DNA of 48,851 bases from Fidelibacterota bacterium (GTDB lineage Bacteria; Fidelibacterota; Marinisomatia; Marinisomatales; UBA1611). The DNA lies in the NCBI GenBank assembly GCA_018671775.1, contig JABHGY010000108.1, positions 1 to 48,851 on the forward strand. The letters are read 5' to 3'. Shown one piece after another: positions 22,546-36,518 of this stretch (the first letter of the stretch is position 1; each line of letters starts with the position of its first letter). The position numbers and the translations under genes are program-made. A model generated the notes under the pieces. It saw nothing but the letters and a program-made list of their open reading frames with translations. It ran no database searches and was not told where the DNA came from.

Positions 22546-22719
22546 CTATTTATTCTTCTCTCGAAATTTCTTCCACGCCATAGCGCCACCGGCTCCGATT
22601 AAAAGTTTTAAGCCACCAATGGGTGCTTGAGTTGGTGCATTCGAAAAACCAACGCCTTGTGCCATCAGGATACTTGAAATTGAAATAAGTCCAATAATGA
22701 TTGTTGTGTATCTGTTCAT
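22546..22719 (-). CDS. 57-aa secreted peptide with PID-CTERM-like sorting tail
   Basis: Signal peptide MNRYTTIIIGLISISSILMA, short core QGVGFSNAPTQA, then PIGGLKLLIGAGGAMAW and basic KKFREKNK. Confidence 0.7.
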   Translation of the reverse strand: MNRYTTIIIGLISISSILMAQGVGFSNAPTQAPIGGLKLLIGAGGAMAWKKFREKNK

Positions 22720-22763
22720 AATTGTTTTTTCCAAATGCAACCTTTTGAAGGTTTATTCTGAGT

Positions 22764-25538
22764 TTATTTAATGTATGTGATTTTTTGTGTGAATGTCTTT
22801 TCTCCTGATTCCAATTTTATAAAATAAATTCCTGATGATTGATTCACTGGACTCCATTGTGCTTTGTGTTTACCTGCTTTCATTGGTTTATTTATCAGGG
22901 TTTCTACCAACCGTCCTTTGATATCAAAAACGCGTAGAGACGTTATTAATAACGTCTCGGTACCTGGGATATCAAACGAAATCATGGCGCTTGGATTAAA
23001 TGGGTTAGGATAAATGGGATATAATGAAAATTTTGCAGGTAACGAGATGTTATCGATTTTTATTTTCCCTTGCTGAGAAATGATATTCTCTCCATTTAGC
23101 ATTTTGTAATAAAGATTTAAAATTTCGATTTCAGAATCCATCTTGAATGAAATTGTATCTTGCTTAAACTCACCTGTTCTCGAAAATTCTACAATAGAAA
23201 ATCCTCTTTCTGGAGAGTCACTTGACATAAATAATTCGCCATCCTGATTTTGTTGAGGTGTAAATTGAATGCTTTGCTCACCGATATCGTAAGAAATCTG
23301 GATTTGTCCAGCTTGAATAGATTCGTCAATAATAATTGAAATATTGTCCTTTTTTTGGATCACTTCCAATGAGCGTCCAACTTGTGATTGCTCTTTTTCA
23401 ATCTGACCAAAATTCTTTTGATACCAAGACCACATTTGAACAAATGCCATGCCATCTTCTAAATCAAATTTGCTATCCAATGTTGATATAAAATGAGGTG
23501 CTTCTCCACTCACAGGAGCTAATTCAAAGTTAAAATCTTTTGCATTCCATCTGTTTAATAAAATATTTAAATCAATAAAAGATATCTTTGAATCTAAATT
23601 ATAATCACCCAACATTGGCGTTAGATAGGTATACGCTATGTCAACGGTCGTAAGGCCTGTTTCGTCTTCCAGATAGGTAAAGGATACGGTTATCGAATCG
23701 TAACTTGCAAACGGAGGTTTTAATAATATGCTTAAGCTTGAATCTGTTTTACTTGAATCAAAGCTTATCGAGTTCACATTAAAAGCGGATATGGAAAAAT
23801 TCAATGAATCAATCTTTTCATTAAATAAAAATGTAATAGGCCTATTTTCCATAAGAACAATAAATGAATCGATTGGGAAAGAAATTGATTCCACGCTAGG
23901 AGGAAGTATATCATATAATTGAGTTGTATCGACAATGGTAGTATTACTCACCAATTGATTGCCAGCTTCGTCAAATATCTCAACATCTGCTTTGGTCTTT
24001 AGAATGAATTTTTCATTTCCATTGGGCGTATGATTATAATTAAAATTCATTCTAATTTGATTCTCTCCTCCATTCAAAAAATTACTATCTGTGCGTGTCA
24101 AACTCGTAATCACCATGGTATCAGAAAGACTTTTATTCGAAAAATATTCTATCTCAAAATTGTTTTTAGTGATGGACTCCGTCCCGACATTTGTCCCAAA
24201 TATTGTATCATCAAAAATCAAATCTAAATAGGAGTTGTTTAATGCAAAATTTACTGAATCTAAAGCTGGAGCTAAGTAATCTCTGACTGTAAATAATTGG
24301 CTTGAATTAAATTCAACACTAACATTATTTTCATCTGCCAAAACAGCATTAAACGAGAAATAAATAGTTGTTTCACTTTCAAATATTTCTGTAGGAAAAA
24401 GCGCTATTGAAGGTGGATCCCCTTCCATGGTTAAAGTAAAAGGAATATCGGGGCCCGAGATATCATTATATTTTAGTATGATATAGGACATCAAATGTTC
24501 AGCTTCCACAACAATTTCCGTATCTGGGATATATAATGTTTCACTAAAACTCATGGTAATTGAATCATTTTCCATCGCGCCATTTTCAGGTATCACAAAA
24601 TCAATATCAGGAGGAACGGCATCACTCAAATTGAATGTTATTCCATCCACATCGAGAAGCGGAATTCCTATGCTATTGAAAATTGAAGAGACCGAAGCTG
24701 GTCCGATTGTAACAGATTCTGAGCCACTAGGCAGATTGGGGTACTCTATATTGATGATAACTGATTCATCGCCACTCACAAGATCATCTCCTGTTAATGA
24801 TGTGAGAGAGCTTATATTTGCTTCTGTGGCATTGCCTCCATTCGGGTTGATTGTTAAACTATAATCATCATTATCTAAAGGTGGTCCATTTCCGCTGTAC
24901 ACCTCTTGGTAATCGCCACCATAAACACCTTCGCTAAAATAATAATTTATATTCGAAAAATCTTCTGATAAAGATGTAGAATCTACAGTGAGCGCTAAAC
25001 CAAAAGAGGTTTTCACACTGCCAGTATTTCCTCCACGATCGTCCACAACAATGTAATATGTTCCTGCCTCAAGTATCAATTTGGGAAGCATATTGGCATA
25101 ATAGGGGGCGGACTCAAAACCTGAAATACATTCAAACGCATAAGTCTCAGACGAACCATCTGGATAGAGAATTTCTGTATTAGAATCATCCTGATAAAAC
25201 GCCCAAGATGCCATATCGCAATCAACTGTAAATAAAGCAATATGAACATCTACATCTGTTTCAGAATCACAGGTTGTGATATAGATTGTTGAAGTTTCGC
25301 TTAAGGATAATTTGTATGTATAATCTGTTCCATCCGAATTATTAATATTTCCTGGATTGCCGTCAATACCTGGAAATGCCCTAAAGTCCCAATCATTATC
25401 GTCAACGGTAAGGTCCGCTAAATGATTAAATGGGAAGTCAACTTCAGTAAGTTCTGTATCAAAGCACTGAGCAAATGTCACCTTCGGAACGGACATTAAT
25501 ATTAAGACAAATAATGGATAAACTATTTTATTCCACAT
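22764..25538 (-). CDS. Large acidic surface protein: PPC-like domain, Ig-like repeats, dockerin-like motif, T9SS type A-like CTD
   Basis: Signal peptide; LEAGTYYIVVD; GDYNLDSKISFIDL and DSKFDLEDG motifs; C-terminal YPNPFNP...SSGIYFIKL...KITYIK. Confidence 0.82.
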   Translation of the reverse strand: MWNKIVYPLFVLILMSVPKVTFAQCFDTELTEVDFPFNHLADLTVDDNDWDFRAFPGIDGNPGNINNSDGTDYTYKLSLSETSTIYITTCDSETDVDVHIALFTVDCDMASWAFYQDDSNTEILYPDGSSETYAFECISGFESAPYYANMLPKLILEAGTYYIVVDDRGGNTGSVKTSFGLALTVDSTSLSEDFSNINYYFSEGVYGGDYQEVYSGNGPPLDNDDYSLTINPNGGNATEANISSLTSLTGDDLVSGDESVIINIEYPNLPSGSESVTIGPASVSSIFNSIGIPLLDVDGITFNLSDAVPPDIDFVIPENGAMENDSITMSFSETLYIPDTEIVVEAEHLMSYIILKYNDISGPDIPFTLTMEGDPPSIALFPTEIFESETTIYFSFNAVLADENNVSVEFNSSQLFTVRDYLAPALDSVNFALNNSYLDLIFDDTIFGTNVGTESITKNNFEIEYFSNKSLSDTMVITSLTRTDSNFLNGGENQIRMNFNYNHTPNGNEKFILKTKADVEIFDEAGNQLVSNTTIVDTTQLYDILPPSVESISFPIDSFIVLMENRPITFLFNEKIDSLNFSISAFNVNSISFDSSKTDSSLSILLKPPFASYDSITVSFTYLEDETGLTTVDIAYTYLTPMLGDYNLDSKISFIDLNILLNRWNAKDFNFELAPVSGEAPHFISTLDSKFDLEDGMAFVQMWSWYQKNFGQIEKEQSQVGRSLEVIQKKDNISIIIDESIQAGQIQISYDIGEQSIQFTPQQNQDGELFMSSDSPERGFSIVEFSRTGEFKQDTISFKMDSEIEILNLYYKMLNGENIISQQGKIKIDNISLPAKFSLYPIYPNPFNPSAMISFDIPGTETLLITSLRVFDIKGRLVETLINKPMKAGKHKAQWSPVNQSSGIYFIKLESGEKTFTQKITYIK

Positions 25539-26091
25539 TAATTAACCCTATTCCATAGCTTTTTATATGGGCAGAATCATTTTTCGCATCTCGAAGTTTG
25601 GTGTTTTTTCCATAAAGCAATTCCGAATTTCCTGTGGAAATAGCCGTTAAATGAATCGTTGCCAAAGACCAAGTTCCCCCATCATTTTGATCCATCTCAA
25701 TGTCAGGTAATAAATATATAAGAATATCAAGAACCCCTTGCTCATTCTCCACAATTTGAATGGGGCTATTTTGACTTTGGAAAAATTCTCCCGCAGTCAC
25801 TGAATCAACCCTTACGCTTCCCCAATCATATCGGATATCTAATTGAGCCGCAGCCGATGGATTTAGTTTTAACCCATAAAGCTGAACAGATATTGAAGAA
25901 TTTAATTGTGTATTTATTTCTGCAGGATGGAAAAAAAGTGCCGGTGCTTCCAAATCCATATTCTCAGGATCAAATGGATTATTTAAAACATAGTTCGCTT
26001 CATCACATGAAAGAATCAAAAATAAGCAACAAAGAAAAAGTTTATGAACTATTTTCTTAAAAACGATAATTGAATTGTATTTTATTCGCAT
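25528..26091 (-). CDS. Lipoprotein with cohesin-like domain
   Basis: Lipobox LILSC; beta-sandwich pattern ALFFHP...ISVQL...AAQLDIRYD...VDSVTAGEFF...LATIHLTAISTGNSEL...LRD. Start uncertain. Confidence 0.68.
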   Translation of the reverse strand: MRIKYNSIIVFKKIVHKLFLCCLFLILSCDEANYVLNNPFDPENMDLEAPALFFHPAEINTQLNSSISVQLYGLKLNPSAAAQLDIRYDWGSVRVDSVTAGEFFQSQNSPIQIVENEQGVLDILIYLLPDIEMDQNDGGTWSLATIHLTAISTGNSELLYGKNTKLRDAKNDSAHIKSYGIGLINVE

Positions 26092-27076
26092 CAGGTTTGT
26101 ATTCAAAATCAAAATAATAGTCTCCATCAAAAAAATCATCATTTGGTGCAACAATATAGGCATGAGCCATATTTATAACCCAAATCAATGCACCTATATT
26201 TCGAACATTTTTCATAAATAAATTGTATTTTTTTGTATCAGAAACATACTGAATAATTTGAGGGCGTAATTCTAATAAATTGTGTGGATCAGTTTCGATT
26301 TGGTAAGATTGATATGTTTCTTGAAATCCTCCCCAAGCAATATCATATTGATAATAAGCTATCAAAGTGCTTACTCCGAGAATCGCTTCTATACTCATGA
26401 ATGTATATCCATGAAATTTTCGTTTTGCCCAAATTTGTCCGCTACCTGGTAGCGCGGTGGACATCATAAGTGCTTTAATTTTACTGGGTATTGGAGGCAG
26501 TTGAGGCCATATCCGTTTACGAATTATTTTTTTGGACACGGCGACTTGAGATGTATCTGATTCTACAGACAGATTATCTGGAATTGGTAAACCACTTACA
26601 TCATAAGCCATTTTTTTCATATCTAGCAAAAGGCTATCAGAAGCGCCTGAACTATTTATGGAAAATTCATTGACCATCGTTTCCAAATCAACGGAAAACA
26701 ATCTACCATTGATTAAAAATTCATCATCCCCGTTCTGTTCAATTTTTCCTGCGATAATATAATTTACGTTTAATTTTTTCCCGAGATCAATGGCGCACCC
26801 TTCACTTAAACATGACCAATAATCTTTTTTATTTGGATTTAAAATACTGAACTGATTACTGATACCTTTATTTTGGACTCTATAAACTTTCAGATCTCGG
26901 ATTGTCTTCCTGAATTCCTCTGTGAGGAATAATCTTAACGGCTCAGAAAGACCCTCTCCACTAAATTCTAACACAGCAAGTTTGCTACCTGTATTCAAGT
27001 AAACCGATTTACTAATCTCACTCGCAAAGCAAAGATTTATAAATTGAAAAATGATGATAGCTCGAATGATGGACAT
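26057..27076 (-). CDS. Secreted protein with CsgG/TolB-N-like domain and DUF5683-like C-terminal region
   Basis: LAVLEF...CLSEGCAIDLGKKLNVNYIIAGKI; KALMMSTALPGSGQIW; ends KIQFNYRF. Confidence 0.65.
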   Translation of the reverse strand: MSIIRAIIIFQFINLCFASEISKSVYLNTGSKLAVLEFSGEGLSEPLRLFLTEEFRKTIRDLKVYRVQNKGISNQFSILNPNKKDYWSCLSEGCAIDLGKKLNVNYIIAGKIEQNGDDEFLINGRLFSVDLETMVNEFSINSSGASDSLLLDMKKMAYDVSGLPIPDNLSVESDTSQVAVSKKIIRKRIWPQLPPIPSKIKALMMSTALPGSGQIWAKRKFHGYTFMSIEAILGVSTLIAYYQYDIAWGGFQETYQSYQIETDPHNLLELRPQIIQYVSDTKKYNLFMKNVRNIGALIWVINMAHAYIVAPNDDFFDGDYYFDFEYKPDANKIQFNYRF

Positions 27077-27165
27077 GAATGAAAAAGAGAGGATATTTTT
27101 CCTCGCTATTGTAAAGTTACGCCGTTTCTTGAATCCATTGCAAATAAATCGAAAAAAGGATATAT

Positions 27166-27666
27166 CTAAAATTGTTTGAGCGGATTGTCTCGCATCATTT
27201 GTTCAATAAAATTTTTGCTTTCTTGATGAATGGCCCTTTCTACATCTCCATATAAATTCTGACTTGTGGATTGTCCCAATATTTCATGAGAATAGATTTT
27301 AGATGTCATCACTTTTTTAGGTAAAAGAATTTTTCCTTTTGGTTTTGAATACCCTTCTGCAGAGATAGAAAAATCATAAACTGAAAAAATAACCAAAAAT
27401 GATGAGATCTCATCAACTCTTGAATCAATAATTTGTATATCTACACGTAAGATAGGTATCTGCTCATCTTCTATTTTTATATTATATTTTAACAAACGGA
27501 GTTCGAGTATTTGAGCAATACGTTTCTCCCATGTCAAATCTGCTACACCCTTCAACTTGATTTCTAAGTTTAAATCGTCAATCCCTTTTAGATTCCCATC
27601 GAACCATTTATCTTTAGCCAAAATATTCGAGAATAATAAAAATAATAATATCAATTCTTTCTTCAT
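27166..27666 (-). CDS. Secreted hypothetical protein
   Basis: Signal peptide MKKELILLFLLFSNILA; 166-aa ORF co-oriented with neighbours. Confidence 0.7.
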   Translation of the reverse strand: MKKELILLFLLFSNILAKDKWFDGNLKGIDDLNLEIKLKGVADLTWEKRIAQILELRLLKYNIKIEDEQIPILRVDIQIIDSRVDEISSFLVIFSVYDFSISAEGYSKPKGKILLPKKVMTSKIYSHEILGQSTSQNLYGDVERAIHQESKNFIEQMMRDNPLKQF

Positions 27667-27681
27667 AGGAAAAATTTAATC

Positions 27682-29046
27682 TTATTTTTCTTTGCTTTTA
27701 GAAAAATACCGACGCGTTTCTGCCATCACTTTGGGAGATAATAAAATTGCCGATATCATAGTCGGAATTGCCATTAAGGCAAACATGCCATCAATGAGAT
27801 TAATGGCTATATCAATAGAAATGACCGATGCCAAAACGATGGTGGCAAGGTAAAACCAATTATAAATGGGTTTTGCCTTCGTGCCAAAAAGATAACTTGT
27901 GCATTTCCGTCCGTAGTAAGAATATCCAAACATGGTGGATAAACTAAAGCTTAATACAGCCACAAATATTATCACTTGACCGAACAAACCCAATTCACTT
28001 TTGAATGCCATGGTGGTTAGGGTTACTCCATTATCTCCACCGTAATCCACGCCAGAAGCTAAAATGACAAATGCGGTAATCGAACACACGACGATGGTAT
28101 CAATAAAAGGACCTAACATGGCAACCAATCCTTCTCGGACGGGCTCTTTGGTTTTGGCTGCACCATGCGCCATAGCTTCCGTCCCAATCCCAGCTTCATT
28201 CGAAAATGCAGCGCGCTTAATGCCTACAATAATGATGGAACCCAACGCACCGCCCAAAACGGCATCTCCCGTAAAGGCATCCTGAAAAATTGATGCAATA
28301 ATAGCCGGAATATCTGAAATATGATTGACGAGAATAATCATGGCGGCAAAAAGATAGATGGCAACCATAAAAGGAACCAACCGTGAAGCAACTTTTCCAA
28401 TTCGCTTAATTCCGCCCAAAATCACCAAGGATACAATCAATGCAGTCATTAGTCCCGTAAGCGTGTCGCCAAGCATAGGATTATCCAAAAATAATTCATT
28501 CGGTCTATAAAATAAATCTCGAATTATTTGTGCCAATTGGTTTGCTTGAAAAAGGACAAAACAGCCAAATAATCCCGCAACGCTAAACAAGATGGCTAAG
28601 GGACGAAAAGCTTTTCCCAATCCTTCTTCAATAACATACATGGGACCACCTTGCACTTCACCTCGGTCATCTTTCCCTCGATACATAATACTTAGAGTGC
28701 AGGTAAAATATTTCGTGGACATACCAATAATCGCAGAAAGCCACATCCAAAATAAAGCACCTGGGCCACCCGTGTGAATCGCCAAAGCGACACCACCGAT
28801 ATTTCCCATTCCAACAGTACTTGCGAGCGCAGAGGATAAAGCTTCAAAATGTGAAATTTGTCCAGGATCATTTTCATCATCATATTTCCCTTGCAAAATT
28901 TTAATCGCATGAGGAAAATGTCGAAAGGGGATAAAACGACTGTATATCGTAAAAAATATTCCACCGCCCACCAATAGGATGATGAGAGGTGTCCCCCACA
29001 TAAACCCTGAAAAAGCAGACATGGCGCTATCTATAAATTGTAGCAT
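27682..29046 (-). CDS. Alanine/glycine:cation symporter (AGCS family)
   Basis: STVGMGNIGGVA, GGPGALFWMW, GGPMY, FSNEAGIG. Confidence 0.94.
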   Translation of the reverse strand: MLQFIDSAMSAFSGFMWGTPLIILLVGGGIFFTIYSRFIPFRHFPHAIKILQGKYDDENDPGQISHFEALSSALASTVGMGNIGGVALAIHTGGPGALFWMWLSAIIGMSTKYFTCTLSIMYRGKDDRGEVQGGPMYVIEEGLGKAFRPLAILFSVAGLFGCFVLFQANQLAQIIRDLFYRPNELFLDNPMLGDTLTGLMTALIVSLVILGGIKRIGKVASRLVPFMVAIYLFAAMIILVNHISDIPAIIASIFQDAFTGDAVLGGALGSIIIVGIKRAAFSNEAGIGTEAMAHGAAKTKEPVREGLVAMLGPFIDTIVVCSITAFVILASGVDYGGDNGVTLTTMAFKSELGLFGQVIIFVAVLSFSLSTMFGYSYYGRKCTSYLFGTKAKPIYNWFYLATIVLASVISIDIAINLIDGMFALMAIPTMISAILLSPKVMAETRRYFSKSKEK

Positions 29047-30487: not shown

Positions 30488-31864
30488 TTATTCCAAATTA
30501 TCCGCTGGCTTTGGACGTTTCCGTGATTTAAAACTTGTGATTGTTAAGCCTAGAGAAAAATTAAATCCACGCATGGTTTGAATCCACATTCCATTACGGA
30601 AGCCAAAACCCAAATCAAAAATAATGGGACCTTTATGAAATCCAAGTCCTAAAGATAATTCTTTCGCATCACCGCCCGCCCAGCTATACCCAAGTCTGAT
30701 CGGAATATTATCTAATTTTGTCCACTCCACTCCAAAAGACCAACGCCATTTTGCTTTCGAGTAATATTCGTTGCTGAACCCCGTAATTAAATCACTGGCT
30801 AAAAGAAATGTTTCCGTTCGTTTCGATACGCCCAAACGAAAAGTAGCTGGATAGCGTGTTACAAAAGGGCGAGCGCTCCCATTTGCAGTGGTATCTTTGA
30901 TAATTTCTGAATGATTATAAAACAAGGAATCTTGTGATAATTTATCCGCACGAAGGGTATCGATGGTATAGGTAAATAAAACCGATTCACTGGGACCCAA
31001 TTCTTCTCCCTGCCACGTAAAAGGATAAATTCCAGGGATGGAAATGCCCGGACCTCCTTCATCTTTTTTGAGCGTTTTATTCCAGGTGATATTGCCTTTC
31101 GCGTTAATGAGAGATGCGCCAAAAGCCCAGCCATCAAATTCTTGGGTAACCACACCAATATCCAAACCCAAACCAGCACCCCCAAATCCTTGGCGTATGA
31201 GATATTTCCCCGAACCGTAAAGCCCTAAATCATCCGTAATCAGGGTCGCTGAAGAACTATCAGAATCGATCCCAAAATAAAAAAGACCTTGAAGATATTT
31301 GACTGTTGCTCCAAATGATAAATTTTTAAATGGAACCGCAAATGTCACGCCATATTCATTTATCCCCAGCATTTCGTAGCCCAAAGTCATATCCAGCTCT
31401 GGTTTATCCGCATTGCCATACATCATCAATTCTAATAGACCTATGGGCAATTTATAATTGGCTAAAAAGATGGCATTTGACGTAAATGCTAAATTTTCAT
31501 ACGCAAAGTTTAAAACAGGAATTGGAAGATGAAAATCTTGGAAAAAAGTGAGTCCACCCGCATCTTGAAATTCTAGAAATAGTTTATCCTTATCTGCAGT
31601 ATAAAGGGTATCACCACTATATTCTGACAGCGTTTCAAATGAAATGAAATTCCCGATCACGCCAGCATCAAACCCAAATAATTGCAATTGAAAAGGTTTA
31701 TCTTGTTGAAACCCAATGAGCGCAGGATTATATCCAACAGAAAATATACCGTCTGCAATTGTTGTATAAGTCCCTGCTAAACCCACAACACGAGGATCTC
31801 GTTTAGTTTGCCCAACTGCAATCGTTAAAACAATCAAAATGAAGATGATACATCTTTTTATCAT
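30488..31864 (-). CDS. Probable outer-membrane beta-barrel protein (DUF5723/FadL-like)
   Basis: Signal peptide; YNPALIG, FGATVKYLQG, GLGLDIG, IPIRLG; amphipathic strands. Confidence 0.7.
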   Translation of the reverse strand: MIKRCIIFILIVLTIAVGQTKRDPRVVGLAGTYTTIADGIFSVGYNPALIGFQQDKPFQLQLFGFDAGVIGNFISFETLSEYSGDTLYTADKDKLFLEFQDAGGLTFFQDFHLPIPVLNFAYENLAFTSNAIFLANYKLPIGLLELMMYGNADKPELDMTLGYEMLGINEYGVTFAVPFKNLSFGATVKYLQGLFYFGIDSDSSSATLITDDLGLYGSGKYLIRQGFGGAGLGLDIGVVTQEFDGWAFGASLINAKGNITWNKTLKKDEGGPGISIPGIYPFTWQGEELGPSESVLFTYTIDTLRADKLSQDSLFYNHSEIIKDTTANGSARPFVTRYPATFRLGVSKRTETFLLASDLITGFSNEYYSKAKWRWSFGVEWTKLDNIPIRLGYSWAGGDAKELSLGLGFHKGPIIFDLGFGFRNGMWIQTMRGFNFSLGLTITSFKSRKRPKPADNLE

Positions 31865-34800
31865 TTGAAAATCCTGCCGTTCTGATTCTTTGCTTTAATA
31901 AAGGATAGGCTTTTTTTATTAACTCGCACAGCATTTGGTCTAATAATAAGATAATATCCATTCATATCTCGAATGGAGCCATCTGAACTAGAAATTCTTA
32001 AACGCACTTTATCATGAGATGTGGGAAAATCAACCGTTGCGCTCAAATCCCAAGTATAAGATGCTAGGTTTTCTGCTTCTGCCACAATAGACGACCAATG
32101 AGCGTCATTGTTAATCTCGGGACTTTCTATGGTGGAATAATCTATATTTATGGTTTCTATATTGCCATAATTTTTCCATAATATCTCGTAGGATTGATCC
32201 GCATACAAGGTATCTCCTCCATTTGGCCAAGTAATCAAAAGCTCATTTGGAGAACTTTCCATCATGCCTGTGCTGCTTAAACGAAAAGTGATGAATGAAT
32301 TGATATCCAAATAATCTGCCGTCGTCATATATACGGATTGACTATCCGTTCCATTCAAATGAAATCTAGGCGCCACATAATGATCACCATAATCTGTTAA
32401 AAGAAAAATACGATTAGAATCCATGGTGCTTAAAAATGTCCCTGTGCCCGCTTCATGCACCATCCCTGGCGGAAAGCCGGAAGAATCGCCTTCGATATAA
32501 TAGCTCACAGGGTCGGGTAAAATAAATTTCCATAGCGTATCCACATAAGAAATCACAGTCTCTGTTCCCGATACAGCTCGGTGGACTAAATAAGGAATGC
32601 CATCCACGCATTCAGAAAAATCTGTCATAACATTAAAAATATAAATATCACTAGTATCTGGATCTAATGCTGAGCATTGGTTCACAATATATATTTCATC
32701 CAAGAGATCCCAGCCTTCTTGAACCACCAAGGAATCTCGGAGCGTGGCTAACATTTCGGCTGTGGTATCATAAGGAAAATAGGATTGATTCGACATCAAA
32801 ATAGATAACTCAGCACCAAAAGGAATCGCATTTATCACATTGGACGTGAGTTCAGCGTGAATGAGAGAATTCCGAATACGATTTCGGTTTTCCGGATCAA
32901 ATTCTGTAATCGGCGTTGGGAGCGCAGAAATAAAAGTCATAGGTGCCATCATCACTTCAAAAGGAGCAACCAATCGGTAAGCACCAGAAATTGCTTTGCC
33001 TACTTCGATGGTACCGCGCCCATCTACTCGTGATTCAGATTCTACCACCAAGCTCACAGGATTAATTGAGAGTAGTTCAATAATGTTTGCGCAATTTTCA
33101 TCTGATGGTACCAGTTGGGACCAAGAGGGAAGACTATCTGATTTCGAATTAAAAATTTGCGTGAGTGTCCCCTCTTTATTCAATTCGATTACAGTCATGG
33201 CCGTATCAATATCATTTATTGGATATCCTATGGAATCCACATTTACACATAAATTAGTTGTATCCCCAAAGGTATCCACACCTTTCATATTGATACTCAA
33301 CATGACAGGTAATTTAATCTGACTATACATGATAAACTGAATACGCACATCTGTCATGGTCATCCCCGTGAGTCCTTGAGGCATATTTTCCATGGATTGT
33401 GTAGAGCTTGGAAAAGCCATAAAAACATAGGCTTCCAGCGATTCAAAACGCATAGAATACATACGGACCTTTAGCCCCAAACCGCCAAGATACTCATCTT
33501 TTAAAGAAATAACGGTTGTTTGCGCTGGAATAGAAACATCTAATCCCAATTCCATTTTATCGATTGCAGAGTCTGGATATTGCGTGCTTTGAAAATTGTA
33601 TCCTTTTAAATCAAAATCACGATTAATCACATTTCCTGTTGAAAGCGCAGTATCAATCAAAACCGAATCAGACCCAAGAGGTGGAACAAAATTTTGAAAA
33701 TTGATGCGAAAGTTAATATCAAAGGGAAACGTGCTTTCCAAATCAGAAATAGTCAGGCGATTGGCCGTATTATCAATGCCCTCTGTTTTGAGTGTTGCCT
33801 GAAAAAGAGACAGGCTGGTTTCACCACCATCATCACCTCCTTGTGCTGGAAAACTCATATCAGGTTTTGGAATATCTAATACCGTCTCTAAAATATTTAC
33901 CTCAGCAGAATCCAAAGTGGGGATATTCAGATTAAGAATTAGATTGACTAACATAGAATCATTGGCCGGAATTACAACCGTTTCGCCACTGGCCACATCA
34001 GCAGAATCCAACTTGAAACCAAGATTAATTTTGATTTTTTCTTTTAACCGTTTTCCTAGAAGAAGCGTGGTATCCGTATATGAAATATTACTACCAATCG
34101 TCGGGCTTGTCTCATGCTGTGCTAAGGTATCATTCGTTAAAACGGCTCCCGTAAAAAGTCCAGATTGTGCTTGAATCAAATCTTTGGGAATCCTTTGGTT
34201 TGCAATAGATGTAATAAATTGTGCTAGATTGATATCATCATCACCCATAACCAAAGCATTGATACTTTCCACAATTTGAGGGTCACTCGCCAGATCAATA
34301 TCACTAAAACCTAAATTTAATTCTACGAGTGCTTCGGTGAGAATCGAATCAACAGCCGTATTAAAAACATTCACAATGAAATTCCATGTTTCAGCTGTTA
34401 TTGTTCGATCTACTGCTGGAGGCATATAGAATGTCGCAGCCGACCAAGTGGCTGGATTTGCTTCAACATAAGTATTATCAAAATAAGGTCCATTGGAACC
34501 AGCCTCATAACTCACGACGGGCAAACTCATATTAATAGGAGAGACTGGAATTTCAAATGTGCTTAAATCTACGCCAGGTATTGGCGTCGCTGGAATATCA
34601 GTATCAAGATAACCACCATCAAAATCTACCTTCAAATTATCGTCATCAATGGCTTGAGACGGCAATTCTCCTTCAAAAATTAACTCCATTCCTAAACTGT
34701 CATCACGATTAAAGATGTTGACACTATCCACAATTCCATCAAGAGAATACCGGGTTTGGACTAATGGAATCTTGATATCGATAAACCAAGTGGGCTTTTC

Positions 34801-34917
34801 GAATTTCTCGGTTTTCTCAAAATCGCAAGCACTCAAGAGGAATAAGGCTAAAAGGCCACTGAAATAAAAAATACTTAAATATTTTTTATCAGGTCTATTT
34901 CTCGGATGATTTTTCAT
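31861..34917 (-). CDS. 1018-aa acidic lipoprotein of unknown function
   Basis: Lipobox LLSAC; beta-rich repeats; C-terminal Ig-like module LLITWPNGG...YEILW...YTWDL...VRLRI. Confidence 0.78.
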   Translation of the reverse strand: MKNHPRNRPDKKYLSIFYFSGLLALFLLSACDFEKTEKFEKPTWFIDIKIPLVQTRYSLDGIVDSVNIFNRDDSLGMELIFEGELPSQAIDDDNLKVDFDGGYLDTDIPATPIPGVDLSTFEIPVSPINMSLPVVSYEAGSNGPYFDNTYVEANPATWSAATFYMPPAVDRTITAETWNFIVNVFNTAVDSILTEALVELNLGFSDIDLASDPQIVESINALVMGDDDINLAQFITSIANQRIPKDLIQAQSGLFTGAVLTNDTLAQHETSPTIGSNISYTDTTLLLGKRLKEKIKINLGFKLDSADVASGETVVIPANDSMLVNLILNLNIPTLDSAEVNILETVLDIPKPDMSFPAQGGDDGGETSLSLFQATLKTEGIDNTANRLTISDLESTFPFDINFRINFQNFVPPLGSDSVLIDTALSTGNVINRDFDLKGYNFQSTQYPDSAIDKMELGLDVSIPAQTTVISLKDEYLGGLGLKVRMYSMRFESLEAYVFMAFPSSTQSMENMPQGLTGMTMTDVRIQFIMYSQIKLPVMLSINMKGVDTFGDTTNLCVNVDSIGYPINDIDTAMTVIELNKEGTLTQIFNSKSDSLPSWSQLVPSDENCANIIELLSINPVSLVVESESRVDGRGTIEVGKAISGAYRLVAPFEVMMAPMTFISALPTPITEFDPENRNRIRNSLIHAELTSNVINAIPFGAELSILMSNQSYFPYDTTAEMLATLRDSLVVQEGWDLLDEIYIVNQCSALDPDTSDIYIFNVMTDFSECVDGIPYLVHRAVSGTETVISYVDTLWKFILPDPVSYYIEGDSSGFPPGMVHEAGTGTFLSTMDSNRIFLLTDYGDHYVAPRFHLNGTDSQSVYMTTADYLDINSFITFRLSSTGMMESSPNELLITWPNGGDTLYADQSYEILWKNYGNIETINIDYSTIESPEINNDAHWSSIVAEAENLASYTWDLSATVDFPTSHDKVRLRISSSDGSIRDMNGYYLIIRPNAVRVNKKSLSFIKAKNQNGRIFK

Positions 34918-35027: not shown

Positions 35028-36413
35028 CTAATATCGATAATCGTCTGGCTTATATGGACCTTCGATTGTCACATTAATATACTCGGCTTGTGCTTCTGTC
35101 AATTGCGTTAATACACCACCAAAACCCTTCACCATACCTGAAGCAACTTCTTCATCCAATCTTTTGGGAAGTACTTCAACCGTAATTTTGGATACTTTTT
35201 CATCAGAAGATAAATTAGCAAATTTTGCATCAAATAAATGTATTTGAGCTAATACTTGATTTGCAAATGAACCGTCCATAATCCGAGATGGGTGCCCTGT
35301 CGCATTGCCCAAATTAACCAATCGACCCTCGGATAAAAGGATGAGATAGTTGTTTTTGTCATCACTTCTAAAGATGCGATGAACTTGCGGTTTTACCTCA
35401 TTCCACTCCCAGTTATCGCGCATAAATTTCGTATCGATTTCATTATCAAAATGTCCAATATTACAAACCACTGCTCCACTTTTTAACGTTTCCAACATGG
35501 AACGATCACACACATTTACATTGCCAGTCGTCGTAACAATTAAATCTGTTTTAGACAATAAATCTGTATTGATACCCTCTATGGTTCCTGTGTTAATTCC
35601 ATTTTTGTAAGGAGAAATAACTTCATATCCATCCATACATGCTTGCATAGCACAAATAGGATCAATTTCACTAATGCGAACAATCATACCTTCTTGTCTC
35701 AGAGACTGAGCGGATCCTTTCCCCACATCACCATAGCCAATAACTAAAGCTTTTTTGCCAGACAACAACATATCTGTCCCTCGCTTAATCGCATCATTGA
35801 GCGAATGACGACATCCATATTTATTATCATTTTTGGATTTGGTCACAGAATCATTTACATTAATAACGGGCACTTTAAGCGAACCTTTTTGAAGCATTTC
35901 CAAAAGACGATGGACACCTGTTGTTGTTTCTTCACTAATTCCATGGATATTGTCTAAGATTTCAGGATATTTCTCGTGCAACATTTGCGTTAAATCACCC
36001 CCATCATCCAAAACCATATTCGCTTCCCACGGCTTCCCATCCTTGAGAATCGTTTGCTCAATGCACCATAAAAATTCTTCTTCCGTTTCACCTTTCCATG
36101 CAAATGTTGCAATATCGGCAGCGACCATTGCGGCAGCGGCATGATCTTGCGTAGAGAATATATTGCAGGATGACCATCGGACTTTTGCACCCAAATCAAT
36201 CAAAGTTTCCATCAAGACAGCGGTTTGAATTGTCATATGAATACATCCCAATATATTCGCACCTGCCAAAGGTTGTTCGCTTTTGTATTTTTCACGTAGC
36301 GTCATTAAAGCAGGCATTTCTGCTTCCGCTAGTTCTATTTCTTTTCGACCATAATCAGCCAAAGTAAGATCGGCTACTTTATAATCATTATTATCGATGG
36401 TTGGATTGTTCAT
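35028..36413 (-). CDS. ahcY: S-adenosylhomocysteine hydrolase
   Basis: [50 protein letters not shown] 36413 follows a GGAG RBS. Confidence 0.97.
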
Positions 36414-36443
36414 TTTATTCTCCATTTTTGTTGCTAATCAAAA

Positions 36444-36503
36444 TGAACGCCGTTTTAATTCGCCAAGCCTCTTGGATATATCCAATGCAACGTTCCTTGG
36501 CAA
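36444..36503 (-). ncRNA. SAH riboswitch
   Basis: Minus strand TTGCCAAG-GAACGTTGC-A-TTGGATATATCCAA-GAGG-CTTGGCGA-ATTAA-AACGGCGTTCA: P1 stem plus pseudoknot, directly upstream of ahcY. Confidence 0.85.
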
Positions 36504-36518
36504 TTCAAGTTTATATAT

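Follow-up and report, generated by a model that had tools for sequence, protein, structure and literature searches.

Introduction

Described systems that come closest to the locus reported here include the type I cohesin-dockerin pairs and the anchoring proteins with one cohesin from clostridial cellulosomes (among them PDB entries 1ohz, 2ccl, 3ul4 for OlpA and 4dh2 for OlpC); OlpA and OlpC have an anchoring role. We analyzed a 48,851-nucleotide (nt) stretch of DNA from a Fidelibacterota bacterium (GenBank assembly GCA_018671775.1, contig JABHGY010000108.1), referred to below as the window, and describe a cassette of four genes (g1-g4) in which the gene of a single-cohesin lipoprotein (g3) overlaps the gene of a large type IX secretion system (T9SS) cargo protein (g4) that carries a divergent dockerin-like module. 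g3 shares the cohesin β-sandwich with the clostridial pairs, with template modelling (TM) scores of 0.65-0.79 by those chains, and the g4 module, like the clostridial dockerins, appears as a duplicated calcium-loop-plus-helix unit. The role that we propose for g3, the anchoring of a secreted protein to the cell, is also that of the single-cohesin anchoring proteins of cellulosomes. In contrast to the clostridial systems, the host is a diderm, the predicted anchor is a lipid-modified cysteine instead of an S-layer homology domain or a sortase, the cargo would exit via the T9SS, and the cassette holds no carbohydrate-active enzyme. The g4 module differs from clostridial dockerins in being internal, in failing the Pfam Dockerin_1 model and in lacking ligand positions 1 and 3 of its second loop. 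The arrangement does not qualify as a cellulosome: g3 carries a single cohesin, an enzyme domain is absent from g4, and the canonical dockerins of the genome are found on a peptidase, a deiminase-like protein, an LVIVD protein and a NIDO fragment.

Non-cellulosomal cohesins from Archaeoglobus fulgidus (2xdh) and Clostridium perfringens (2vo8, 2jh2 and 2w1n) resemble g3 in being single and in lying outside cellulose degradation; unlike them, g3 is a lipoprotein in a coupled operon with a T9SS cargo. Judging from excerpts of the report by Williams et al. (2021; PMC8542988), the published idea nearest to the g1-g4 cassette is a cellulosome-like complex with T9SS anchoring that has been inferred in Candidatus Stygibacter (Cloacimonadota). 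In these excerpts, this FCB-group relative is alike in having dockerin-tagged peptidases and enzymes together with a cohesin protein that bears a T9SS C-terminal domain (CTD), and different in having one 3,755-amino-acid (aa) scaffoldin with tandem cohesins. Here, in contrast, a one-cohesin lipoprotein appears privately paired with one cargo and with a partner of putative CsgG/LpoB and DUF5683 domains, and all of these genes are duplicated together as one cassette.

Two ways of fixing T9SS proteins to the cell are known, namely attachment to anionic lipopolysaccharide (A-LPS) and PorP-type partners. The type B cargo proteins with PorP/SprF-like partners, as treated in passages of PMC9143113 and PMC12618676, likewise combine a large T9SS adhesin with a linked outer-membrane partner that decides its placement. 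In contrast to these systems, the CTD of g4 is of type A and its partner g3 is a cohesin lipoprotein, not a β-barrel; the analogy is one of logic and not of family membership. Our literature search found no paper on a cassette of cohesin lipoprotein and T9SS cargo, and none on the dockerins of Marinimicrobia or, among the papers listed for the phylum, on its cohesins.

Overall organization of the cassette

The host genome of the window is 1.85 Mb in size, is distributed over 167 contigs and is 92.7% complete. We found that g1-g4 form a cassette that is conserved across a Marinimicrobia (SAR406) family and that g2-g3-g4 extend across the order. g3 is a cohesin by profile and predicted fold, and we propose that it captures the dockerin-like module of g4 and would thereby hold this T9SS cargo on the cell, a form of non-cellulosomal cohesin-dockerin tethering that we regard as the likeliest reading and on which our judgement is evenly balanced. 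The block consists of five minus-strand open reading frames (ORFs) within positions 22546-27666 of the window, with the following features:

27166-27666, minus strand: g1, 166 aa, exported, of no known family; found in the orthologous cassette, not in the paralogous ones.
26057-27076, minus strand: g2, 339 aa, exported, a probable two-domain envelope protein with a putative LpoB/CsgG-like N-terminal part and a putative DUF5683 C-terminal part.
25528-26091, minus strand: g3, 187-aa lipoprotein with a single cohesin domain.
25528-25538, minus strand: overlap of the g3 stop with the g4 start, 11 nt, read as translational coupling.
22764-25538, minus strand: g4, 924-aa T9SS cargo with a signal peptide, 540 N-terminal residues without a Pfam family and a constant tail.
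23379-23642, minus strand: dockerin-like module in g4 (residues 633-720), made up of two repeats of 20 residues that flank a conserved ELGPVTGxxPHF linker.
23031-23387, minus strand: mid-domain of g4, residues about 718-836, a β-sandwich that is probably cohesin-like.
22767-23015, minus strand: type A T9SS CTD of g4, residues 842-924.
22546-22740, minus strand: g5, exported peptide of about 57-64 aa, separate from the cassette.

An earlier model reading of the letters alone, called the original prediction below, had described five co-oriented, packed genes with two overlapping junctions, and the ORFs bear this out, with overlaps of 35 nt between g2 and g3 and of 11 nt between g3 and g4. The gaps were 89 nt between g1 and g2 and 23-44 nt between g4 and g5, where the start of g5 is probably the conserved ATG at 22719. 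Export signals, which we judged by a hydropathy scan and by eye, had been assigned to all five genes; N-terminal hydrophobic segments scored in g2, g3, g4 and g5, and the segment of g1 was shorter.

Conservation and linkage of the genes

We compared 20 loci, each around the best cohesin match in one of 20 relatives (16 of the same family and four of other families); the relatives are not independent, and the linkage and co-occurrence counts in this section describe the pattern rather than test it. g2 and g3 were adjacent in 20/20 loci, with g2 immediately upstream. The order g1-g2-g3 was present in all 16 same-family loci; 13 of them had a complete g4, and in three g4 ran into a contig end. 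In the loci from other families, g2-g3 was found in 4/4 and g1 in 0/4, and only the tail of g4 (residues 546-924) was conserved, in both of the loci with enough contig. Only one of the eight flanking genes of the window gave a match, which was single and weak and came from one locus, indicating that the cassette moves as a unit. The original prediction had named a failure of the genes to co-occur in relatives as one of the findings that would speak against it, and the synteny revealed strong co-occurrence instead.

A similar picture emerged from the 47 loci that were found via the g4 module, nearly all of which are from Marinimicrobia. The gene start was visible in 25 of these, and a cohesin gene lay immediately upstream of the module gene in 23. 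The two exceptions were a second cargo gene in a tandem pair behind one cohesin (L065) and a locus with another gene in between (L081). Among 16 paralogous cohesin loci, a g2 paralogue was located upstream in 15 and g1 in only one, and a large CTD-bearing gene lay downstream in 13 (11 of the 13 with the module); three loci were cut by contig ends. The cohesin and cargo genes overlapped at 39 of 42 non-identical junctions, by 4-35 nt when the first possible start of the downstream gene is taken. Across 41 genomes, cohesin and module were both present in 27 and both absent from nine; one genome had the cohesin only and four had the module only, and among these four, a broader profile detects a cohesin ORF in one, the contigs are cut in two, and the last has a cohesin-domain match elsewhere. 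Additionally, two of the 98 representatives scanned (P0074 and P0148) contained an N-terminal Pfam cohesin and a C-terminal module, mid-domain and CTD in one polypeptide.

The exact g1-g4 proteins were present, without a name, on 66-205 public contigs. All sampled words of the block were found in 14 DNA runs, and 77-90% of them in six metatranscriptome runs. RNA contigs with at least 99% identity bridged g4-g3-g2 and g2-g1 in 4/4 metatranscriptome runs examined, although contigs of this kind do not establish a single transcript and may stem from DNA carry-over.

Predicted structure of the cohesin lipoprotein g3

g3 matched the Pfam Cohesin model (PF00963) at 24.1 bits, a borderline score that equals the threshold of 24.1, and at 24.7 bits in a six-frame genome search with the same model. 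The cohesin domain covers residues about 45-187 (window 25531-25959). The lipobox cysteine, Cys29 (26005-26007), is followed by Asp-Glu in the window and was invariant in an alignment of 21/21 orthologues, in which acidic residues and a conserved N-P-x-D-P-x-N linker come after it. The AlphaFold2 model built from this alignment contained 11 strands and had a mean predicted local distance difference test (pLDDT) value of 86.4. In a Foldseek search of the PDB with this model, the first 35 of the 36 matches listed were cohesin modules, and the last was described only as cohesin-like. The best listed match was the non-cellulosomal cohesin of A. fulgidus (2xdh; E-value of 1.6e-10 and TM score of 0.78 by target), and TM scores reached 0.79 by target among the PDB matches listed. 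The cohesin-like lipoprotein of the original prediction is thus borne out by a Pfam score at threshold and by the invariant Cys29, and its concern that the lipoprotein might not adopt a cohesin fold is answered by a model of pLDDT 86 that matches solved cohesins.

Two acidic residues directly followed the cysteine in 7/29 candidate lipoproteins of the genome, as judged by a crude scan. The surface-export signal of Bacteroidota lipoproteins resembles such acidic residues after the cysteine, and we give this likeness little weight.

g4 as a type A T9SS cargo

The CTD of g4 matched the type A model TIGR04183 at 41.3 bits (cut-off 23) and Pfam Por_Secre_tail (PF18962) at 35.7 bits (cut-off 27), while the type C model gave a weak match of 18.7 bits with a cut-off of 40. 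Genes for PorU (539 bits, cut-off 420) and SprA (556 bits, cut-off 200) are present in the genome, PorV-like matches in a profile search of the genome were all below the cut-off, and at least 61 ORFs carry a T9SS tag. By these profiles, g4 is a type A T9SS cargo, as the T9SS-type CTD of the original prediction had implied.

The N-terminal residues 1-540 of g4 matched no Pfam domain, which agrees with the earlier statement that no glycoside hydrolase is recognisable. The orthologues of g4 are 1127-2240 aa long and have heads with Laminin_G_3, Big_5, C-type lectin, fn3 or β-helix domains. When orthologues and paralogues are taken together, the length ranged from 947 to more than 3600 aa, and the tail was constant while the heads varied among Laminin_G_3, C-type lectin, Big_5, Big_7, Big_12, cadherin-like, LRR, PKD, fn3 and β-helix domains. 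The family therefore looks like one of adhesin-type surface proteins, as far as domain content suggests. A Foldseek search with the whole g4 model was uninformative; it returned generic Ig/FN3 arrays and one cohesin-FN3 entry (2w1n, rank 2).

The g4 of the window (924 aa) was the shortest orthologue seen in comparison with L020-L034; it is without the Laminin_G_3 lectin domain at the N-terminus and without one duplicated block, both of which occur in relatives. Cargo genes of more than 3600 codons were observed in some relatives (G041:C4, that is L067 and L076; L062, L064, L071 and L077), and in one genome two giant cargo genes stand in tandem behind one cohesin gene.

The dockerin-like module of g4

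Residues 633-720 of g4 hold a 20-residue unit in two copies, in keeping with the tandem segments of about 22 residues that are expected of a dockerin. When a profile of this 88-residue module, built from 15 orthologues, was searched against 1.84 billion proteins, 726 representatives were recovered at E≤0.001, of which 370 had E≤1e-10; in 111 of the 150 best representatives the module was located 111-163 residues before the CTD. In repeat 1 of 146 modules, the calcium-ligand positions were kept as D1 in 100%, D/N3 in 93%, D/N5 in 79%, D/N9 in 76% and D12 in 100%, which makes a full EF-hand/dockerin calcium loop, followed by a helix that ends in W20; repeat 1 of the window itself has a serine at position 9. 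In repeat 2 of the same modules, the corresponding values were 99% for D/N5, 90% for D/N9, 100% for D12 and 95% for W20. The two repeats share D5, D9, D12, the hydrophobic positions 8, 10 and 16, and W20. Alignment of repeat 1 with repeat 2 by hhalign gave 18 columns in register with a P-value of 0.0027, where the statistics are weak and the register is consistent.

We also compared the module with canonical dockerins. Only repeat 1 aligned with the five canonical dockerins of the genome (21 columns, P 1.8e-4; hhalign), and five of the six weak PDB sequence matches of the module (E 0.7-3) were dockerin chains. hmmscan of g4 gave no Dockerin_1 match at E≤1, and one of 98 relatives scanned reached 19.9 bits with this model. 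By its sequence, the module is a divergent, half-degenerate dockerin-like module outside PF00404. The dockerin-like double motif of the original prediction accordingly stands as a duplicated 20-residue unit, and not as a Pfam dockerin with two complete loops.

The mid-domain and the order of the g4 tail

Between the module and the CTD, the AlphaFold2 model of g4 contained a mid-domain whose strands had block pLDDT values of 65-88. The Pfam Cohesin model matched this slot in two of 88 representatives with a complete slot (P0123, 26.4 bits; P0148, 55 bits), where the representatives were scanned in two batches, 43 at E≤0.01 and then 45 at E≤0.001. Alignment of a profile of 151 mid-domains with 40 g3-type cohesins spanned 80 columns, with P 1e-4 and a probability of 58%. 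When run over all 4300 ORFs of the genome, the mid-domain profile matched only g4 and one other protein (C117), on the stretch of the latter that Pfam reads as Cohesin (E 9e-5). None of the 15 close g4 orthologues matched Pfam Cohesin in the mid-domain, the mid-domain profile from these 15 orthologues found no cohesin among PDB sequences, and single-sequence or domain-by-domain hhalign comparisons were weak (P 0.0045 to 0.17). From these profile comparisons, we found the mid-domain to be probably cohesin-like, and it is likely that the g4 tail has the order dockerin-like module, cohesin-like domain and CTD.

The C117 protein (G000:C117:297-2291, minus strand; 664 aa) has a tail that Pfam reads as Dockerin_1, Cohesin and T9SS CTD. 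By these assignments, it is the canonical counterpart of the g4 tail, and the two tails are colinear with an E-value of 2.9e-26, most of which comes from the CTD. G000:C32:1695-3299 (minus strand) likewise joins a dockerin and a CTD.

A tail of this kind could also pair with itself. In such a daisy-chained or self-capped arrangement, the module would bind the cohesin-like domain of g4, in cis to give a compact tail or in trans to give chains or a surface lattice, and g3 would only nucleate or cap the assembly. The constant order and spacing of the tail, the Pfam Cohesin matches in the two slots, the alignment of mid-domains with g3-type cohesins, the colinearity with C117 and the selectivity of the mid-domain profile for g4 and C117 all fit this arrangement. 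It is weakened by the low significance of the domain-by-domain comparisons and by the 0/15 Pfam Cohesin matches in close orthologues, and it gives no reason for the maintenance of a separate cohesin lipoprotein whose gene is duplicated along with each cargo gene; we consider it unlikely.

Canonical dockerins of the genome

Canonical Dockerin_1 C-termini were found in the genome on an S8 peptidase, a PAD_porph deiminase-like protein, an LVIVD-repeat protein, a NIDO-domain fragment and one more ORF. These ORFs are located on contigs C41, C95, C109, C134 and C165 (L003-L006), and none of the five has a T9SS tail. A profile made from the genome's own dockerins found two more. It is conceivable that dockerin proteins without a CTD cross the outer membrane by piggy-backing on a cohesin-bearing T9SS cargo.

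These proteins raise the alternative that g3, and perhaps the mid-domain of g4, is a general anchor that receives canonical C-terminal dockerins, with g4 as a co-assembled scaffold. The result would be a protease-rich, cellulosome-like surface complex of the kind that excerpts of PMC8542988 propose for Candidatus Stygibacter, a precedent from Cloacimonadota. The canonical Dockerin_1 proteins and C117 are available as partners, and detectable cohesins in the genome are few, namely g3 and that of C117. However, each A1-type cohesin gene is coupled to one module-bearing cargo gene, paralogues included, which points to a private partner, whereas the canonical dockerin genes are scattered over other contigs. 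The dockerin-tagged enzymes also carry no T9SS tag, and their route to the surface is left unexplained by a general anchor, which we regard as rather improbable.

The proposed accessory proteins g1 and g2

The original prediction had called g1 a secreted hypothetical protein, and indeed g1 matched no Pfam or NCBIfam family; its Atlas look-alikes are automatically named "DUF4136 domain-containing", which is a lead only. In six relatives (L020, L029, L032, L033, L034 and L039), a small T9SS-CTD protein of 149-340 aa was encoded immediately upstream of the g1 orthologue, a place that is taken in the window by an amino-acid carrier gene (27682-29046).

The g2 protein scored 21 bits against DUF5683 (E 3.5e-4), below the threshold of 26.7, and the window copy had no CsgG or LpoB match. 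In its family, DUF5683 was matched at E≤0.01 by 27/27 members, and LpoB and CsgG by 3/27 each; the Atlas clusters of g2 are labelled CsgG/LpoB/DUF5683, again a lead only. The earlier description of g2 as a CsgG/TolB-N-like and DUF5683-like protein agrees for DUF5683 with the matches across the family, with a sub-threshold match in g2 itself, and is reflected in only a few family members for its N-terminal half. Transmembrane helices in the DUF5683 part found no support in a Kyte-Doolittle scan (window of 19 residues, cut-off 1.6), in which the N-terminal signal segment was the only one flagged. g2 looks like an accessory that is dedicated to each pair of cohesin and cargo.

Such accessories could also act in export or assembly. 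In this alternative, g2 and g3, with g1, would make up a complex in the envelope and act as chaperone or guide for the large cargo around its T9SS passage, the cohesin fold being merely a cargo-binding domain, similar to the PorP/SprF-like shuttles of type B CTD substrates. The strict one-to-one linkage of accessory genes with each cargo gene and the putative periplasmic-type LpoB/CsgG-like domains of g2 are in keeping with this idea. Parallels exist in the cognate shuttle genes beside type B substrates of Flavobacterium johnsoniae, as given in passages of PMC12618676, and in the SprB-SprF and PG1035-PorP complexes, as given in passages of PMC9143113. The CTD of g4 is, however, of type A, and according to passages of PMC12618676, PorV recognises all CTDs of this type, which do not require a private shuttle; moreover, g3 is not a PorP-like barrel. 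We find an adaptor of this kind quite improbable.

The peptide g5

g5 consists of a signal peptide, the motif QAPIGG, a Gly-rich hydrophobic stretch and a basic tail, and members of its family are exported peptides of about 60 aa with a signal peptide followed by QAPIGGLELLIGAGGAMAWKK and a basic tail. The family occurred in 26 of 54 family genomes, often in two or three copies, and its members lay directly downstream of a T9SS-CTD gene in 7/7 places inspected (including G000:C105:8612-8788, minus strand, and L088-L092). g5 was not found downstream of g4 in 15 relatives, and it matched no PID-CTERM model at E≤1. The match to LPXTG_anchor (16.4 bits against 15.9) covered profile positions 12-33 only, that is, the hydrophobic stretch and basic tail, and left the LPXTG motif unmatched; no known sorting-signal model fits the family.

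The model search and the absence of g5 behind g4 in the 15 relatives led us to reject g5 as a PID-CTERM protein or a member of the cassette. The PID-CTERM-like label had to be dropped, though g5 is a real conserved small protein, and the five-gene assembly of the original prediction is reduced to the conserved cassette g1-g4, with g5 belonging to a separate family behind T9SS-cargo genes in general.

Base composition and neighbouring genes

The GC content of the block was 34.2%, compared with 37.6% for the genome (standard deviation 1.65%, 1180 windows of 5.1 kb), and 3.5% of these windows had a value at or below that of the block. The AT-richness that had been noted by eye against the flanks is thus real and modest. 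Horizontal transfer as its cause is unsupported, since the cassette is vertically conserved across the family and the dip is about two standard deviations. Promoter and terminator scans of the block were at the level of shuffled sequence (30 against 26.5 and 3 against 2.6, respectively).

Elsewhere in the window (30488-34917, minus strand), the gene of a 1018-aa lipoprotein without a Pfam or NCBIfam match overlaps that of a 458-aa DUF5723 protein by 4 nt. The DUF5723 protein gave a sub-threshold PorV/PorQ-family match (38 bits against 90), and the two may constitute another outer-membrane pair, which is not syntenic with the cassette in same-family relatives. An S-adenosylhomocysteine (SAH) riboswitch (Rfam RF01057, 45.7 bits against 37) lies at 36438-36504 (minus strand), just upstream of the adenosylhomocysteinase gene (35028-36425) and with metK adjoining, which is an ordinary arrangement.

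Discussion

We propose the following mechanism for the cassette. The lipoprotein g3, which would be translated in a coupled manner from the same message, would present its single cohesin domain at the outer membrane, where it would capture the divergent calcium-loop module about 200 residues before the C-terminus of g4. The cargo would thereby be kept on the cell by a protein-protein plug and socket. g2, with its putative LpoB/CsgG-like and DUF5683 parts, would serve as the dedicated envelope accessory of each pair, and g1 as an extra accessory of the main cassette. What the analysis establishes is the genes themselves, the cohesin fold, the T9SS tag, a gene linkage that is both conserved and duplicated, and occurrence in RNA libraries, whereas binding of the g4 module by g3, the outward orientation of g3 and these roles of g1 and g2 are inferred. 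Canonical dockerins and the divergent module, as well as different cohesins, coexist in one genome, and the presence of two plug types with different cohesins fits pair-specific recognition.

Several observations weigh against capture of g4 by g3. The module scored 14.8 bits against the Pfam Dockerin_1 (PF00404) threshold of 22.9 and covered only positions 1-26 of the 57 profile positions. Its second repeat has no acidic residues at positions 1 and 3 and keeps three of the five ligand positions. The AlphaFold2 model of the module, predicted without calcium and partner, was poor (pLDDT 33-67), with only the first helix formed. The mirror-tree correlation of the cohesin with the module (r 0.92; 39 non-identical triples) was no higher than those with the controls, the neighbouring Ig domain (0.92) and g2 (0.91), which indicates co-inheritance and not co-evolution and does not separate the proposed mechanism from its alternatives. 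The bridging RNA contigs are subject to the reservation given above. g4 seems to hold a cohesin-like domain of its own, which is a possible real partner of the module, so that simple one-to-one docking of g3 and g4 is not the sole option. Finally, passages of PMC9143113 describe type A CTD cargo of Porphyromonas as already fixed covalently to A-LPS, and with that known attachment a second tether is not obviously needed.

A further alternative is that of genes without any direct interaction, as co-located envelope genes under shared regulation, in which the EF-hand-like repeat would be a structural calcium site and the cohesin fold a generic β-sandwich. The failure of the module against the Pfam dockerin model and the lack of a specific mirror-tree signal are what such genes would give. 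Against this, the linkage holds in different families and has survived repeated duplication, the reading frames overlap, and fusion proteins join cohesin and module in one chain; we consider the absence of any interaction highly improbable.

If capture of g4 by g3 is the correct reading, the private pairing of cohesin and cargo would bring diderm, non-cellulolytic, oligotrophic bacteria into the realm of cohesin-dockerin biology and would add a protein-based anchoring route to T9SS biology. A broader idea, which we hold to be possible and still doubtful, is that the triad of g2-type protein, cohesin lipoprotein and cargo with dockerin-like, cohesin-like and CTD parts represents an undescribed third way of fixing T9SS proteins to the cell. 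Each tail would carry both a plug and a socket, and the tails could therefore daisy-chain into a surface lattice; under this broader idea, they may also offer sockets to the dockerin-tagged peptidases of the genome that have no CTD. SAR406/Marinimicrobia rank with the most abundant of the uncultured bacteria that inhabit the dark ocean and oxygen-minimum zones. Were the third way real, cohesin-dockerin contacts would organise a large share of the exoproteome in an abundant ocean lineage. The retention of secreted proteins at the surface of such cells is relevant to their attachment to particles and to how organic matter is broken down.

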